This document shows, piece after piece, positions 6,890 to 21,520 of a DNA stretch of 64,000 nt (its first letter is position 1; each line of letters opens with the position of its first letter). The stretch spans positions 32,001-96,000 of IMG/VR virus record IMGVR_UViG_3300029288_000057; one strand, given 5' to 3'. The position numbers and the translations under genes are program-made. This stretch comes from a virus. Lineage: Duplodnaviria; Caudoviricetes. A model generated the notes under the pieces. The model did not search any database and was not told where the DNA came from. It saw nothing but the letters and a program-made list of their open reading frames with translations.

Positions 6890-7519
6890 TAATAATTCAC
6901 CACAAAACTCTATATAATTACAGGGAGAGTTTCGTGTAATAATTTATGTGAAATATTAACCTAGAATGATATGAAAGTTTTGGTATAAAACTAAGTAGTC
7001 TTCCTCCCACTTTTTACCACTTCTCAACACAAAATCTATAGTATAAAGCGCAACTAGTTGGTTCTTAGATAAGTAATTAATTGTAAAATAACAAGAAAAA
7101 TGGTAATATAGAATCTAAAAATTTACCAAACGGGAGCGGATAAGTTTTACGTGCCATTGTGTCAGAAAAACTGACACCCCCGATTTTTTTTAAATTCAGG
7201 AACATTTATATTTTTACAAAAGAATTTATGATTATTTGAGGTCAGAATTTGGGTAAACATTAAAAGGGGTCAGATTTGAGGTGGGGGAAATAAACCCCCA
7301 CCGTAAATTAAAGTTGACCGTATAAACAGAACAAAGAGATTTCCCCCCAGGAGGCCTTTAATATTTTTAATAAATTATAAAGATTTTTAACAAAGTTTTT
7401 AAGATGTAATTAATCTGATAAAAAATCCTAATCTTATATTGAGAAGAGGTCAGAAATTACCTGGGGGGATTTTATCCGCCGATGGGGTTTTAAAAGAGAA
7501 CGGGAAAAGATAAATTTAA
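6890..7519. other. 630-bp non-coding block between convergent genes (putative origin or terminal signal)
   Basis: GTGTCAG-AAAAA-CTGACAC palindrome 7159-7177; three GGTCAGA repeats; no ORF of 60 aa or more. Confidence 0.45.
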
Positions 7520-7714
7520 TTATTCAAGAACTTCAATTTCGACGGTAACCTTCATCCTGATTTTTTTATCCTCAAAAGGTTTAATAAGTCTGTTTACGAC
7601 ATGTCCTGGAGAGAGTCTTCTTTTACCCTCATCAATATACATATCTTCTTGTCCCCCCTCGTATACGGTTCCTGTGTATTCTTCAACTACTAGATTCTTT
7701 TTCATAATGGCCAT
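7520..7714 (-). CDS. Hypothetical protein
   Basis: ORF after class II promoter. Confidence 0.65.
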   Translation of the reverse strand: MAIMKKNLVVEEYTGTVYEGGQEDMYIDEGKRRLSPGHVVNRLIKPFEDKKIRMKVTVEIEVLE

Positions 7715-7778
7715 CCTTTACTTTTTCGTTTATATCTTTTTGTCTTTGTTATGCGGGTCATCCCCTTTTATTATATGC

Positions 7779-7804
7779 TACGTGATTTCTTCAAAAAAGT
7801 TTCA
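7779..7804 (-). promoter_or_regulatory. Class II promoter TGAAAC-N16-CGTA
   Basis: + strand tacg-N16-gtttca. Confidence 0.65.
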
Positions 7805-8051
7805 CTTATTCAAAGAAAAAAAGAAATAATTTTTTTGACAGGATGGACGGGCGGAGGCGTTTGTATTAGGGTTTTCTGTCCATACGTTTCAGAAGATAAT
7901 TAAGGGCATATATTCCTATAATAAGTAGAATAAGTTGCCACACAGCGAGAGAAAATACGAATACAGCCACTAGAGCAACAATGATAAAGAACATTAGCCA
8001 CAGGAGGCCATGAATAATAAAAGGTTTCATTGGATATTGGGTTTTAGATAT

Positions 8052-8079
8052 TATACGGGAAAATTGGTGAAATGTTTCA
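8052..8079 (-). promoter_or_regulatory. Class II promoter TGAAAC-N16-CGTATA
   Basis: + strand tatacg-N16-gtttca. Confidence 0.7.
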
Positions 8080-8202
8080 CATTTGTTGCGAGGTTATAAA
8101 AAGGCGAAACCTCGAAGGGACAAGCTCCGAGGTTTCTAAAAAACAAAGACAGAATGCAAGTTGGAGTTTGGGAGCTCCTAGATGAATTCATAGACGGTAG
8201 AT

Positions 8203-8230
8203 TATACGAAAGAAAATTAAAAAGGTTACA
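8203..8230 (-). promoter_or_regulatory. Class II promoter TGTAAC-N16-CGTATA
   Basis: + strand tatacg-N16-gttaca. Confidence 0.7.
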
Positions 8231-8247
8231 ACTTTTGGTAAAAATAA

Positions 8248-8607
8248 TTATAATGCCATTTTTTCCTTGAAGGCTCCCACTTCTTTTGTTCCTTTATTTT
8301 TGTTACAATTTTTGCAGGATACGGTAAGATTAGTTTCATCATATTTGGCGCCCCCATTTGCAAGAGCTGTTATATGGTCAATGGTTGCCAGATTTGGATT
8401 TTTATTATTTTGTATTAATTCTTGAGGGGTAAGTCCCCCAACTTCCAAATGAGGTTTCCCGCAATAGGAGCAAACTAAATCTCCTTTTTGTTTCAGGATT
8501 TTCTTCAGGTATTCATCACGGAATTTGAGCCAAGTCCAGAAGCTATCTTCAACGAAGTCTACGTCCTGGTATAGGAGTTTATTTCGAAGGAGCAGGCCTG
8601 CGGCCAT
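8248..8607 (-). CDS. HNH endonuclease
   Basis: CSYCG..TIDHI..GG..NL..SCKNCNKNKG. Confidence 0.85.
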   Translation of the reverse strand: MAAGLLLRNKLLYQDVDFVEDSFWTWLKFRDEYLKKILKQKGDLVCSYCGKPHLEVGGLTPQELIQNNKNPNLATIDHITALANGGAKYDETNLTVSCKNCNKNKGTKEVGAFKEKMAL

Positions 8608-8774
8608 AGATTTAATATGGGGTTTATCCGCAGTAAATATTACATTTCTTTGTTTGGTTCTTCCTGATTGAGAGCTCCTGACAATAATTGTTGTGGGGGG
8701 GGTTGGGATTATTCTTCGGTTGTTTCGTAAAAAGTTTCCAGAGCTTCATCATTCTGTTCATTAGAAGGATTTTT

Positions 8775-9155
8775 TTAACTCAAATAACATTTGGCGTAGC
8801 AACTGATTCCATTATCTTTCAGGACTTGGACAAAAGCTCTGGCGCAGGCTTCATATTTTTCTGCTGACTGGCCGTAATAGTCTTCGTGGTCAATAAAGAG
8901 ATTATATCCTTTATAGACGTTTTTGTTTAATCCTTTCAGGTTATTTTTCTTTGCCCATCTGACGAAGGGGGAATTTCCCCCCAATCCAGATACATAAGCT
9001 CCGCCGCATAAACCTTCAGGTTCATAATAAGACTTTCCAATGGGTTTATCATTCAGGTCGGACTCCACGAATGTGACGGGAGTTGGAACGCATTTTCTGA
9101 GTGCTTCCATACCAGCCATTTGAGCTTTGGCTAGGATTTCTTTATAGTCTTCCAT
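8775..9155 (-). CDS. Hypothetical phage protein
   Basis: Start moved to MEDYK. Confidence 0.75.
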   Translation of the reverse strand: MEDYKEILAKAQMAGMEALRKCVPTPVTFVESDLNDKPIGKSYYEPEGLCGGAYVSGLGGNSPFVRWAKKNNLKGLNKNVYKGYNLFIDHEDYYGQSAEKYEACARAFVQVLKDNGISCYAKCYLS

Positions 9156-9165
9156 TATACAATGT

Positions 9166-9384
9166 TTAATTTTTCCCTGATAAATTTGAGCATTTTGCTT
9201 CCGCTTTTGAAGCAGATGCAATCTTCCCTACGACTTGAAGCGGGTGGTTTCCATTTAGGCTATACACGGGACAATCTGAGTCACAAGATGCATGCACTCT
9301 ATCGCAGACTTCATAAAGTTCATTTGCGATATCTTCATCGGTTATTCTTTCACCCTTGATGAGTTTCATTAAAATATCTTCCAT
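9166..9384 (-). CDS. Small Cys/His-containing protein
   Basis: After class I element. Confidence 0.7.
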   Translation of the reverse strand: MEDILMKLIKGERITDEDIANELYEVCDRVHASCDSDCPVYSLNGNHPLQVVGKIASASKAEAKCSNLSGKN

Positions 9385-9439
9385 TGTGTTTATTTTTTAA
9401 ATTCAAATATATAAAGCAAAGATTTTAAAAAGAGGGAAA

Positions 9440-9736
9440 TTAATCCACTGTGGCTCCAAGTTCATTAATCAAATCAAGAGCTCTATTTATATCTTCAAAG
9501 ATTTCTTCGATGCTATCCCCGTAGCTCACTCCATTAAGGAAAAATTCTGTCTCGACTCCATTTTTCTTGCCGATATATTTCACCCCCATAATAAAATCTG
9601 AGCAATTAGAATATACCACTTCATCTTTATCGGACTTTACAAGAGCTTCGGCATTGCGTACTTCCACTACAGGATGTAGTTGTTTTCCACATTTGTCCTG
9701 GATTGTTTCACCGCAATAGACTGTTATTTTTTTCAT
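9440..9736 (-). CDS. Hypothetical protein
   Basis: ORF; stop abuts element. Confidence 0.75.
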   Translation of the reverse strand: MKKITVYCGETIQDKCGKQLHPVVEVRNAEALVKSDKDEVVYSNCSDFIMGVKYIGKKNGVETEFFLNGVSYGDSIEEIFEDINRALDLINELGATVD

Positions 9737-9839
9737 GATTATTTAATTTAAGTTTATAAAAAACCCCAAAGCCATACACTGGGAAGATGGAGTTGGGGGT
9801 TGGCGTAATATTTAGATTATGTCAAACTTTATACTATAT

Positions 9840-9867
9840 TATACGTATTTTTTTAAAAAAGGTTCCA
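9840..9867 (-). promoter_or_regulatory. Class II promoter TGGAAC-N16-CGTATA
   Basis: + strand tatacg-N16-gttcca. Confidence 0.65.
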
Positions 9868-9876
9868 ATAAAAAAC

Positions 9877-10012
9877 AAAAAACCCCCTCAAGTGGGGGTT
9901 TTAAGGCTGAGCCAGCGGAATAAGAATGGTTGTTCACTGATTTATTGGTAGCCACTCCAATCATATCTCATCCATTTTTTTCAGAACGGAACTATTCCGC
10001 CTCCCAGCTCGT
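9877..10012 (-). ncRNA. Candidate small RNA
   Basis: Class II promoter upstream; closing stem GCGGAATA/TATTCCGC; terminator CCCCCACTTGAGGGGG plus U-run; no plausible ORF. Confidence 0.5.
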
Positions 10013-10020
10013 GACTTATT

Positions 10021-10049
10021 TATACGGATAAGAGAAAGGAAAGGTTACA
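10021..10049 (-). promoter_or_regulatory. Class II promoter TGTAAC-N17-CGTATA
   Basis: + strand tatacg-N17-gttaca. Confidence 0.65.
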
Positions 10050-10057
10050 TATAAATT

Positions 10058-10146
10058 CAAAGAGCCCCTCAAGTGGGGCTCTAAGAGATTCAGCCTGCTG
10101 GAAAATTCCACGGCGCACATGTAGCTCGCCAGCATCTAATCTGTGA
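10058..10146 (-). ncRNA. Candidate small RNA
   Basis: Class II promoter upstream; stems AGATT/AATCT and TGCTGG/CCAGCA; terminator GAGCCCCACTTGAGGGGCTC. Confidence 0.5.
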
Positions 10147-10153
10147 ACTAGGT

Positions 10154-10182
10154 TATACGGATTTCTGTGCAAAAGAGTTGCA
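10154..10182 (-). promoter_or_regulatory. Class II promoter TGCAAC-N17-CGTATA
   Basis: + strand tatacg-N17-gttgca. Confidence 0.6.
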
Positions 10183-10342
10183 AAAAATCCCAGAATAAAA
10201 TTCACTCTGGGGTTTCCTGGTCAATAACAAATTAAAAAAATGAATATACAAATATACGATAAAAAATGATAGGGTGGTAGTTTTTTTAAAAAATAAACCC
10301 CAGAAAAAAATCTTCTGGGGGCAGGCCTTCGCAGCTGGTCAC

Positions 10343-10936
10343 CTATTTTTGTTTTCTTTTATTAATTTCGTCTCTGATTTCCGCAGCTTTTTCAAATTCA
10401 TCTTTATCCAGGGAGTTATTAAGAGCTACATTTAATTCTTCTAAAGAGAGTCTAGACAAATCAGTTTGTTTTTTATGCCATTCTTTTAAATCAAAACTTT
10501 TTTCCCATTGGGGAGATTTAAAGGTTTTGATTATAGAGTCCAGGTTATCGGCGAACATGGGGAATTTCTTTTTAATTTCTTCGATTTCTTCTGGGGTTGT
10601 ATCCTGGGTAATATTTATAAGGGTTGAGAACTCATCAGAATTATTTATAGCAATTGGTTTGTTTTTTTGGGGAGAGGTTCCTGATAATAAGTTGGGGAGA
10701 GATTCCACAAAGTTTGCCAGGGCTGTTATAACTTCCTGGTTAACATAAATGATTCTAATTCCCAAATAAATAACAACCCCCAGCGACAATAGAACAACTC
10801 CATTAAATATGGGGAGAGCTGTAAAAAATGAGGCTACAATTATTATGAGGCCTGCGATTGTTAAACCTAGTGCGAGAAGCCCGCAGAAGATTCCTGTCAT
10901 GAAGTCAAAAATATAGTTTGGGTTTTTTCTTTCCAT
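10343..10936 (-). CDS. Membrane protein with C-terminal UVR (UvrB/C) motif
   Basis: Two hydrophobic helices; L..SLDKDEFEKAAEIRDEI. Confidence 0.7.
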   Translation of the reverse strand: MERKNPNYIFDFMTGIFCGLLALGLTIAGLIIIVASFFTALPIFNGVVLLSLGVVIYLGIRIIYVNQEVITALANFVESLPNLLSGTSPQKNKPIAINNSDEFSTLINITQDTTPEEIEEIKKKFPMFADNLDSIIKTFKSPQWEKSFDLKEWHKKQTDLSRLSLEELNVALNNSLDKDEFEKAAEIRDEINKRKQK

Positions 10937-10959
10937 GGGGTAAATATAGTAAAATTAAA

Positions 10960-11205
10960 TTAACTTTCCAAGAAATCTTCATAAATATTTTCCAATTTAA
11001 GCATAATTTCTGGGGAGAAGTCTTCTGCGAAAAGGGGAATAATGTTGAGTAGTTCTTTTATGGCTGTTTCGTATTTATTTTTACTTTTATCTCTTTTTGT
11101 TATGGAGTCCAGGGAGACGAGTTCCTCATGGAGTTGGGGGTAATCTTCGTCATAACAGATTGAGAGCATTTCTTTAAATACTTCTCTGGCGTTTTTATCT
11201 GGCAT
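10960..11205 (-). CDS. Hypothetical protein
   Basis: ORF. Confidence 0.7.
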   Translation of the reverse strand: MPDKNAREVFKEMLSICYDEDYPQLHEELVSLDSITKRDKSKNKYETAIKELLNIIPLFAEDFSPEIMLKLENIYEDFLES

Positions 11206-11255: not shown

Positions 11256-11525
11256 TTATATTTCGTCTCTATGGTAGTATGAACCGAATGCTACAACAAA
11301 AGCAAACAGTCCCATTACTCTTAGACTTAAGTGTTCTGCGGGGTTAAATATGTGAATTGTGCTTATAAAAATGGAGGAATCCAGAAATAAAACATAAGCA
11401 AGTGATGTTATTGCTGCAATGATTAAGCAGGCAGCAATTGTTATTAGGATAAAGTATACAATTCCCCCCAGGATTACTCCAAAGAATGAGCCACCAAAAT
11501 CAAAGAATTTTACTAATTTTTTCAT
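11256..11525 (-). CDS. Membrane protein
   Basis: Hydrophobic ORF in operon. Confidence 0.7.
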   Translation of the reverse strand: MKKLVKFFDFGGSFFGVILGGIVYFILITIAACLIIAAITSLAYVLFLDSSIFISTIHIFNPAEHLSLRVMGLFAFVVAFGSYYHRDEI

Positions 11526-15810: not shown

Positions 15811-15837
15811 CTCTCTTTGTTTTTTTAATTATTCAAA

Positions 15838-18203: not shown

Positions 18204-18521
18204 TTATATAACAGCGTAAGCCCCCAGGATTCGTCCCCCCTCGTCAATATGACATTCTACTTTTACCTCGAAGTTTACATCTCTCATTTCAGGGTCCTGA
18301 AGTTCATATTTGCCCACATTCAAAACCACAAAGGTGTTTTTATCCATCTTATAAGTATCAGGGAGTTTCATCACTTCCTTCTTATAAATGAATTCCTGGT
18401 TAAAGTCTTTTTGGAGGCGTGTGATGTATTTTGACGCTCGAATATAATATTCGGCAATACGCCGCACACTTTTAAAAATCTTTGATTCTTTTCTTTCTTC
18501 TAATTTAAAATACTGTGCCAT
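18204..18521 (-). CDS. Hypothetical protein
   Basis: Array ORF. Confidence 0.7.
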   Translation of the reverse strand: MAQYFKLEERKESKIFKSVRRIAEYYIRASKYITRLQKDFNQEFIYKKEVMKLPDTYKMDKNTFVVLNVGKYELQDPEMRDVNFEVKVECHIDEGGRILGAYAVI

Positions 18522-21066: not shown

Positions 21067-21140
21067 TCATGCTGGTGGGAATTGAACCCAACATTGCTGA
21101 TGTGAAAGACCAGATTCCTAACCATTTAGAAGACAGCACG
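21067..21140 (-). tRNA. trnE: tRNA-Glu(TTC)
   Basis: Acceptor CGTGCTG/CAGCATG, anticodon arm CTGGT-CTTTCAC-ATCAG, T loop TTCAATT; no encoded CCA. Confidence 0.85.
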
Positions 21141-21143
21141 TTG

Positions 21144-21220
21144 TACCATGTATGGGACTCGAACCCATGACCTTTGCAGTGAAAGTGCAATGACTTACAA
21201 TCCATCTCGTCGAACATGGC
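21144..21220 (-). tRNA. trnE: tRNA-Glu(TTC)
   Basis: Acceptor GCCATGT/ACATGGT, anticodon arm TTGCA-CTTTCAC-TGCAA, T arm ATGGG-TTCGAGT-CCCAT. Confidence 0.9.
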
Positions 21221-21225
21221 ATAAA

Positions 21226-21254
21226 AAAAGCGGGAGACTTTCGTATCCCGCTTC
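21226..21254 (-). terminator. Intrinsic terminator
   Basis: AAGCGGGA/TCCCGCTT hairpin plus U-run on minus strand. Confidence 0.6.
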
Positions 21255-21374
21255 TAAGCTTTTTGTAAATTAACCTTTTACATAGTTTTGTCAGGGACAC
21301 AATTGTTGTGAACTTCCTCGCTTTCCTCTGTGTAAAAATTAATCTTCATTTTATTCGTAACTTGTTAATTTGTA

Positions 21375-21445
21375 GTGCGGGAGCAGGAGTTGAACCTACA
21401 TATGCTGCTTATGAGACAGCCAATCTACCATTAATATATCCCGCA
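21375..21445 (-). tRNA. tRNA with CAT anticodon (Met or Ile2), weak D arm
   Basis: Acceptor TGCGGGA/TCCCGCA, anticodon arm GCTGT-CTCATAA-GCAGC, T arm GTAGG-TTCAACT-CCTGC. Confidence 0.8.
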
Positions 21446-21492
21446 ATATATTGTATCTTTAAATAGTCAAAAAAAATCTTTTCTACGACTTT

Positions 21493-21520
21493 TATACGCA
21501 AATATACGAAAAAAGTTTCA
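21493..21520 (-). promoter_or_regulatory. Class II promoter TGAAAC-N16-CGTATA for the tRNA cluster
   Basis: About 48 nt upstream of tRNA(CAT). Confidence 0.7.

Follow-up and report, generated by a model that had tools for sequence, protein, structure and literature searches.

Predicted short non-coding transcription units with ECF-type promoters, including a conserved candidate small RNA gene, in an uncultured jumbo phage

The DNA analysed here (the window) is a stretch of 64,000 nucleotides, bases 32001-96000 of the 290,886-bp IMG/VR virus record IMGVR_UViG_3300029288_000057, which represents an uncultured jumbo phage with a completeness estimate of 91%. On its minus strand, behind an HNH endonuclease gene and behind a gene for a UVR-motif protein, lie several intervals that contain no sizeable open reading frame (ORF). 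In our judgement these are probably short non-coding transcription units of the phage, each leading from an extracytoplasmic function (ECF)-type promoter to an intrinsic terminator, and one of them, here called UA, is probably a conserved small RNA (sRNA). Four units are credible (UA, U4, U2 and U3) and a fifth, U1, is not. Positions are those of the window and features lie on the minus strand unless stated otherwise.

The UA unit extends from 8230 to 8098, and its predicted RNA (8196 to 8098) is about 100 nt long. The -35 box of the promoter, TGTAACC (8224-8230), lies directly 3' of the stop codon of the HNH gene and was invariant in all aligned homologues, while the -10 box (8202-8208) matches the motif CGTATAA after a 16-nt spacer. 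The putative transcript begins with a 5' stem-loop (8152-8189), continues with an unpaired U-rich linker (8137-8151; family consensus UUUGUCUGUUUUAUUUU) and closes with a terminator hairpin (8106-8136), recognized both by terminator calling and by covariation, that has a 12-bp stem, an invariant 7-nt CUUGUCC loop and a U-run (8098-8102) kept in all homologues. The motif UUGUC occurs in both the linker and the loop of UA, and one homologue (L027) carries a third copy in the loop of the 5' hairpin.

Related loci were found through the flanking proteins and share the gene order ECF sigma, UVR-motif protein, small genes and HNH. The UA element was located directly after the HNH gene in every related locus that extended past this gene. 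Together with two further versions contributed by a metagenome pattern scan, 11 distinct versions were obtained, all behind the same HNH gene. A pattern scan of viral contigs for the UA hairpin returned one already known relative only, among ten chance matches. All 11 versions could be folded into the same three parts, namely a 5' stem-loop, about 20 unpaired nucleotides (13-20 of 20 unpaired per homologue) and the terminator hairpin with its U-run. In the alignment of the terminator stem 94% of cells were paired and five pairs had changed on both sides; the covariation score was reached by none of 500 shuffles and collapsed in slid controls. Pairwise identity averaged 81% in the promoter, 75% in the linker-hairpin core, 60% in the final 300 nt of HNH coding DNA and 30% in the 5' body. 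A 5' hairpin was predicted in 11 of 11 homologues although its sequence was not conserved. Homologues, compensatory changes and a core conserved above the flanking DNA were all present.

No peptide or ORF is conserved in UA, because the body lengths (23-56 nt) differ by non-multiples of three and no ATG is shared. Since a plain terminator needs neither a fixed loop nor a fixed linker, the UA RNA, or possibly its DNA, is under sequence-specific selection. Covariance model searches of the two genomes of complete size, this one and a 372-kb relative, found UA as a single copy, and the secondary matches obtained in the search for paralogues were unrelated terminators. No Rfam 15 family matched UA; only tRNAs passed the gathering threshold in the window, and the best sub-threshold matches were terminator look-alikes. 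The in silico case that UA is a genuine, new conserved small RNA gene is strong.

The promoter class to which UA belongs had been termed class II in a preliminary description of this DNA, and it is real. Its motif (TTATACG-N14-22-GKTNCA on the plus strand, TGNMC-N-CGTATAA on the minus strand) had nine matches in the window against 0.06 expected. Genome-wide there are about 35 sites, with the consensus tTG(a/t)AAC-ttt-N-CGTATAA and a spacer of 16 nt in 31 of 41 loose matches, and nearly all of the strong intergenic ones lie 6-48 nt upstream of an ATG. A position weight matrix was built from 23 gene-proximal sites, which ranged from 17.8 to 37.1 bits, and with it only 28 sites of at least 20 bits were found in the genome (290 kb; 581 kb counting both strands). 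The promoters of UA (27.1 bits), U4 (28.0 bits), U2 (26.1 bits) and U3 (25.1 bits) fell inside the range of gene promoters, whereas U1 scored 1.7 bits. Strong promoters without a nearby ORF cluster at this locus, where four of the approximately 28 strong sites lie within 2.1 kb. An AAC in the -35 box and a CGT in the -10 box, 16-17 nt apart, as in promoters of ECF sigma factors, were found in UA, U4, U2 and U3 and not in U1.

In Bacillus subtilis, promoters of the SigW-type ECF sigma factor (group 4) read TGAAAC-N16-CGTATA. The window encodes an ECF-type sigma factor of the phage (15139-15810), with Sigma70_r2 and r4_2 domains, whose gene is syntenic in the relatives. Its best NCBIfam match was SigW, at a score below the SigW equivalog cut-off, and it passed the cut-off of the sigma70-ECF superfamily. 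A second phage sigma factor, RpoD-like, is encoded at 289.8 kb of the genome. Most likely the class II promoters are read by the phage's own ECF sigma factor. They resemble ECF/SigW promoters and those of phage sigma/promoter pairs in the AAC of the -35 box, the CGT of the -10 box and the 16-17-nt spacer; phiEco32 gp36 is an example of a phage sigma factor with matching promoters (PMC12276001). As in gp36-type pairs the small sigma factor is phage-encoded, but here its pairing with the promoters is a prediction only, made for a protein that stays below the SigW equivalog cut-off.

The other units occupy the slot behind the 197-aa UVR-motif gene, which ends at 10343 and is followed by its own terminator (10320-10298), the head of the battery. 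U2 (10051-10182) comprises the promoter TGCAAC-N17-CGTATAA (-10 box 10159-10153), a structured body of about 65 nt and a terminator at 10082-10061. U3 (9870-10049) has the promoter TGTAACC-N17-CGTATAA (-10 box 10026-10020), a structured body of about 110 nt and a terminator at 9902-9879. Both folded better than shuffled sequences, with z values of -2.4 for U2 and -3.2 for U3. U4 (9867 to 9756) has the promoter TGGAACC-N16-CGTATAA (9839-9867, -10 box 9845-9839) and a hairpin at 9801-9762 followed by six U residues (9756-9801 in all). Intrinsic terminators were called on the minus strand at 8136-8106, 9902-9879, 10082-10061, 10211-10189 and 10320-10298, and that of U4 was found by folding; between 7400 and 11000 there were seven terminator-like sites against 2.6 expected.

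The preliminary description had listed three promoter-terminator units, UA, U4 and U1. The hairpins it had placed at 8136-8106 and 10211-10189 were indeed called as minus-strand terminators, and that at 9801-9762 folds and runs into the U6 tract. As units UA and U4 held up and U1 (10258 to 10183) did not, while the battery proved larger than had been described, with U2 and U3 as two more strong units in between. The transcripts had also been characterized as U-rich and ORF-less. The U-richness is modest (38% U in UA, 35% in U4 and 47% in U1, compared to 33.5% genome-wide). Their nature as ORF-less minus-strand small RNAs was borne out in silico by the strong promoters, the intrinsic terminators, the lack of a conserved ORF and, for UA, conservation and covariation in 11 phages.

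U1 consists of a CGTATAT box without a usable -35 box, followed by the hairpin 10211-10189 and a U-run (10183-10258). A better reading is that the 197-aa gene has a second hairpin after its terminator. Its CGTATAT box overlaps the sequence TATATTTG (10245-10252, minus strand), which fits what we take to be the Bacteroidota housekeeping -7 motif, TAnnTTTG. By chance this motif should occur about once in every 1.4 kb of each strand, and a promoter of host type for U1 is a hint only.

The slot occupied by U1 to U4 appears to be lineage-variable. After the UVR-motif gene there were zero, one or two units in the relatives and three or four here, and the unit bodies were alike only between close relatives. 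Terminator cores are shared within the slot, CCCAGA..TCTGGG by the terminators at 10320 and 10211 and CCCCACTTGAGGGG by those at 10082 and 9902, which suggests local duplication. U2 and U3 (9868-10147) look paralogous, with outer stems closing a variable insert; their terminators share CCCCACUUGAGGGG and differ in the outer pairs, and no homologues of the two were found outside this genome. A tblastn search for gene remnants in the unit bodies, made with all frames of the relatives, gave only chance-level matches.

Copy number also varies in PeSLs, the intergenic promoter-plus-stem-loop motifs that mediate indels in T4-type phages (PMC2839356, PMC4122927). The battery might be a PeSL-like array of terminator/promoter cassettes, comparable to T4-type hyperplastic regions, in which the gaps would be cargo slots that are empty or have decayed and the RNAs would be by-products. 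As in PeSLs, a strong phage promoter is joined to terminator hairpins, often of the form CCCC...GGGG, and the combination is repeated in a plastic intergenic region in variable copy number: the next promoter follows about 10-30 nt after each terminator, neighbouring terminators have cores in common, and the number of units varies among relatives with unrelated bodies. At 18410-18450 and 288385-288420 of the genome (18.44 kb and 288.41 kb) compact composites were seen, the -35 box of the following class II promoter lying inside the terminator hairpin. However, PeSLs carry sigma70-like early promoters and flank ORFans, whereas the intervals here contain no ORF and the UA interval itself is conserved. 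Position and sequence of UA are conserved in 11 phages, together with a loop and a linker that a plain terminator would not need, gene remnants were not detected in the bodies, U2 and U3 fold better than shuffles, and cassette recombination would delete the spacer and not leave unique stretches of 35-110 nt. The PeSL-like reading accounts for the junctions between terminators and promoters and for the varying number of units but not for UA, and as an account of the whole battery we regard it as unlikely.

The position of U4 raises another alternative, in which the units are regulated leaders. Their terminators would be conditional, overcome by a phage antiterminator or processed, and would meter the genes downstream, as in lambda pR'-6S-tR' or the 5' untranslated region (5'UTR) premature-termination RNAs of Pseudomonas phages. 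The end of the U4 hairpin and the ATG at 9736 of a 98-aa gene are 25 nt apart, and no other promoter was found between the two. Because the operon beginning at 9736 (98-aa, 72-aa, 126-aa and HNH genes) would then be fed only by read-through of this hairpin, U4 probably doubles as its leader or attenuator. In the relatives, by contrast, the next gene has a class-I-type promoter of its own after the last terminator of the slot, and this promoter is missing here. UA, U2 and U3 are each directly followed by a fresh strong promoter, which would make read-through control pointless, and no antiterminator was identified. Leader control fits U4 only; for the battery as a whole it seems distinctly unlikely.

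The preliminary description had offered a different function for the RNAs, in which their U-rich single strands would base-pair with the A-rich surroundings of AUG start codons in host or phage mRNAs and so prevent initiation, the host being one without Shine-Dalgarno pairing. Some observations are in line with this. The start regions of 364 phage genes are A-rich, with an A peak at -14 to -10, and depleted of G, and therefore lack a Shine-Dalgarno signal. Such leaders fit a host of Bacteroidota type, a phylum suggested by the leaders only; the RpoD-like phage sigma factor was uninformative as to the host, giving matches of about 28% identity to metagenome-assembled genomes of AT-rich Firmicutes. 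The conserved unpaired U-rich linker of UA sits where seeds of sRNAs usually sit, and sRNAs such as GibS have been reported in Bacteroides (PMC7366714).

The plus-strand sequences opposite the units had been likened to translation starts, the A-rich stretch with the ATG at 8154 being the complement of the UA linker. The ATGs at 8154, 9819 and 10240 are present and open no sizeable ORF, with frames of 38, 34 and 9 codons only. Their resemblance to starts is weak. Scored with the 364-gene profile they fell at the 91st, 51st and 97th percentiles of all ATGs, so that 9819 is at the median and hundreds of ATGs score as well as the other two, and at the 21st, 5th and 43rd percentiles of true starts, which is unremarkable for A-rich DNA. 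The antisense start codon was not conserved either. A CAT adjoins the linker in two of the 11 UA homologues and lies further upstream in a third, while most of the others have no CAT near the linker and several have TAT (ATA on the plus strand).

Pairing was compared for all five units. Duplex energies against 404 phage start regions were weaker than against 400 interior windows and equal to those of reversed-sequence controls. For the linker only, the best duplex reached -18.4 kcal/mol compared to -18.0 kcal/mol for the reversed control. The best genome-wide complement to the UA linker of this window was in the leader of the ECF sigma gene (15811-15827, minus strand), with 12 contiguous nucleotides and two mismatches in 17, and would speak for the antisense idea; it was not kept in four relatives, however, and was no better than the reversed-sequence control. 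The complement of the linker consensus was not enriched in the 372-kb relative (1+3 matches against 2+6 in the control), nor in the related loci. Recurrent linker-like matches in the relatives were same-strand T-rich copies before other CGTATAC boxes. U1, moreover, lacks a credible promoter. The start-codon antisense model failed every test run, of conservation, context and pairing, all on phage genes, and is not supported for phage targets; as a general account we think it quite unlikely.

We favour instead the view that the battery is composed of short non-coding transcription units. Transcription would start at a TG(A/T)AAC-N16/17-CGTATAA promoter read by the phage ECF sigma factor and end at an intrinsic terminator. 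Selection keeps the UA promoter, the unpaired U-rich linker with UUGUC and the terminator hairpin with its CUUGUCC loop, whereas of the 5' hairpin the shape and not the sequence is kept. Our inference is that UA works in trans, with the conserved linker and loop either pairing with an RNA or holding a protein that recognizes the repeated UUGUC. CsrB and RsmZ are protein-sponge RNAs with repeats of the motif GGA. UA shares with them the repeated display of a motif, UUGUC being shown twice (in the loop and in a single strand) and a third time in L027; the copies are only two or three and the motif differs from GGA, so the comparison is a lead only. A more daring proposal, which we rate as improbable, is that UA regulates expression in the Shine-Dalgarno-less host, with the linker and the CUUGUCC loop pairing with A-rich, GACAA-containing host leaders or capturing a host RNA-binding factor, for example S1 or a protein with an RNA recognition motif. 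If true, UA would be a new takeover device common to a clade of jumbo phages. Bolder still is the variant in which UA and the HNH nuclease gene, found ahead of it in every case, are functionally coupled.

Several points weigh against the reading favoured here. Transcription, the 5' ends and the efficiency of the terminators are all predicted. The U4 hairpin (-13.9 kcal/mol) was no more stable than shuffled sequence (z -1.1). The bodies of U1 to U4 had no homologue in the relatives, and any function of theirs would have to be argued from architecture alone. For UA no target or partner was found that exceeded the controls or was conserved, whether in the 404 start regions, among complements of linker and loop, in the sigma leader or in the relatives. 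Finally, the linker-like T-rich motif that stands on the same strand before other CGTATAC boxes in the relatives means that part of the conserved sequence may act at the DNA level. In these relatives, downstream of UA, T-rich elements of the form ..TTTCTGTTTT(A/G)T-CGTA(T/G/A)AC-CCCC.. resemble the UA linker on the same strand (L019, 5645-5680 and 6020-6070; L021, 5720-5770 and 6215-6260; L008, 5990-6090). These elements may represent another class of promoters or a motif that works at the level of the DNA.

Two other explanations were weighed together, that the units encode micro-proteins on either strand or that they mark a transcription-primed origin of replication, and both must be called very improbable. 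Minus-strand frames of 46 codons (ATG 8191) and 41 codons (ATG 9964) exist besides the plus-strand frames of 38 and 34 codons mentioned above, but the minus-strand frames cross terminators and do not reach a stop codon before the following CGTATAA box, the UA bodies share neither an ATG nor a frame, and the plus strand has no promoter of either class. An origin might be considered in view of a DnaB-like helicase gene 2 kb away and of the third-largest ORF-free gap in the genome, but no iterons were found, and the locus lies near the GC-skew maximum at a convergent junction, about 165 kb from the divergent, origin-like minimum. Toxin-antitoxin systems were also rejected: no tandem or direct repeats of the ToxI-like kind (type III) are present inside the units, and for type I no complementarity to the mRNA of a neighbouring 54-aa membrane protein was seen by eye, nor is that neighbour conserved.

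The units, UA included, are of a kind already known, namely small RNA genes of phages, presumably under the control of a phage sigma factor. Mapping by ONT-cappable-seq in Pseudomonas phages, including the jumbo phage phiKZ, yielded small non-coding RNA candidates that arise from a promoter and an early terminator (PMC10914365). The likeness lies in short transcripts that run from a phage promoter to an intrinsic terminator, in many cases lie immediately before a gene and are conserved among relatives; U4 fits this pattern directly. The Pseudomonas RNAs, however, were mapped experimentally whereas all of ours are predicted, and UA, U2 and U3 would be stand-alone RNAs with a new promoter after them and not 5'UTRs. 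The promoters here are moreover of ECF type and the host translation signals lack Shine-Dalgarno sequences. Among trans-acting sRNAs of Bacteroidota, GibS of B. thetaiotaomicron (PMC7366714) likewise has its own promoter, an intrinsic terminator and a conserved single strand between hairpins, but no enrichment at start regions was found here in phage genes and the host phylum is only deduced.

The cataloguing of small RNAs from virulent and jumbo phages has only just begun, and almost none are from phages of Shine-Dalgarno-less hosts. UA is well suited to experiment, having a defined promoter class, a phage sigma factor and an RNA of about 100 nt with a conserved single-stranded motif and loop, and the eleven natural variants already indicate which parts matter. 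The locus also illustrates how a genome can be built from terminator-promoter junctions, which helps in the annotation of such phages; naive ORF callers put false genes across these units, as was seen in this analysis.

The HNH gene (8248-8607) lies upstream of UA here and in every related locus covering that flank, and is the last of the four or five small genes between U4 and UA. It encodes 119 aa, compared to 146-205 aa in close homologues (56-70% identical) and 130-141 aa in three distant matches. A 45-aa ORF upstream of it (8624-8761) is unrelated to the N-termini of the homologues, and a run of eight G residues lies at about 8694-8701. A truncation, a frameshift or a sequencing error may have affected the gene; its conserved C-terminal 117 aa are intact. 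The 98-aa gene had no relatives among viral contigs, and a blastn search of a phage database with 7400-11000 gave zero matches. On the other side of UA, a class II promoter (8051-8079, TGAAAC-N16-CGTATAA, 28.9 bits) drives the gene of the 54-aa membrane protein (8030-7866).

The locus is situated at the far end of a minus-strand gene block of about 170 kb, near a convergent junction and near the global maximum of the cumulative GC skew. This maximum, at about window position 11454 (genome 43,454), coincides with a convergent switch of gene orientation, and the minimum (genome 208,873) with a divergent one. Among the ORF-free stretches of the genome, 6890-7519 ranks second in size and 9737-10342 third. 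The former (630 nt), at the convergent junction just past UA, contains repeated (A/T)TCTGACC words. In relatives the same block measures 1.2-1.6 kb (L019, 5650-7129; L021, 5720-7289; L023, 6600-7775) and contains many CTCTCCCCA(G/A)AAT-like words, plus runs of G5/C5. Elsewhere in the window, at about 21.5 kb, a class II promoter (21492-21520) drives a tRNA cluster (21067-21445), in which ARAGORN called a tRNA-Met and one tRNA-Glu and Rfam added a tRNA at 21067-21140.

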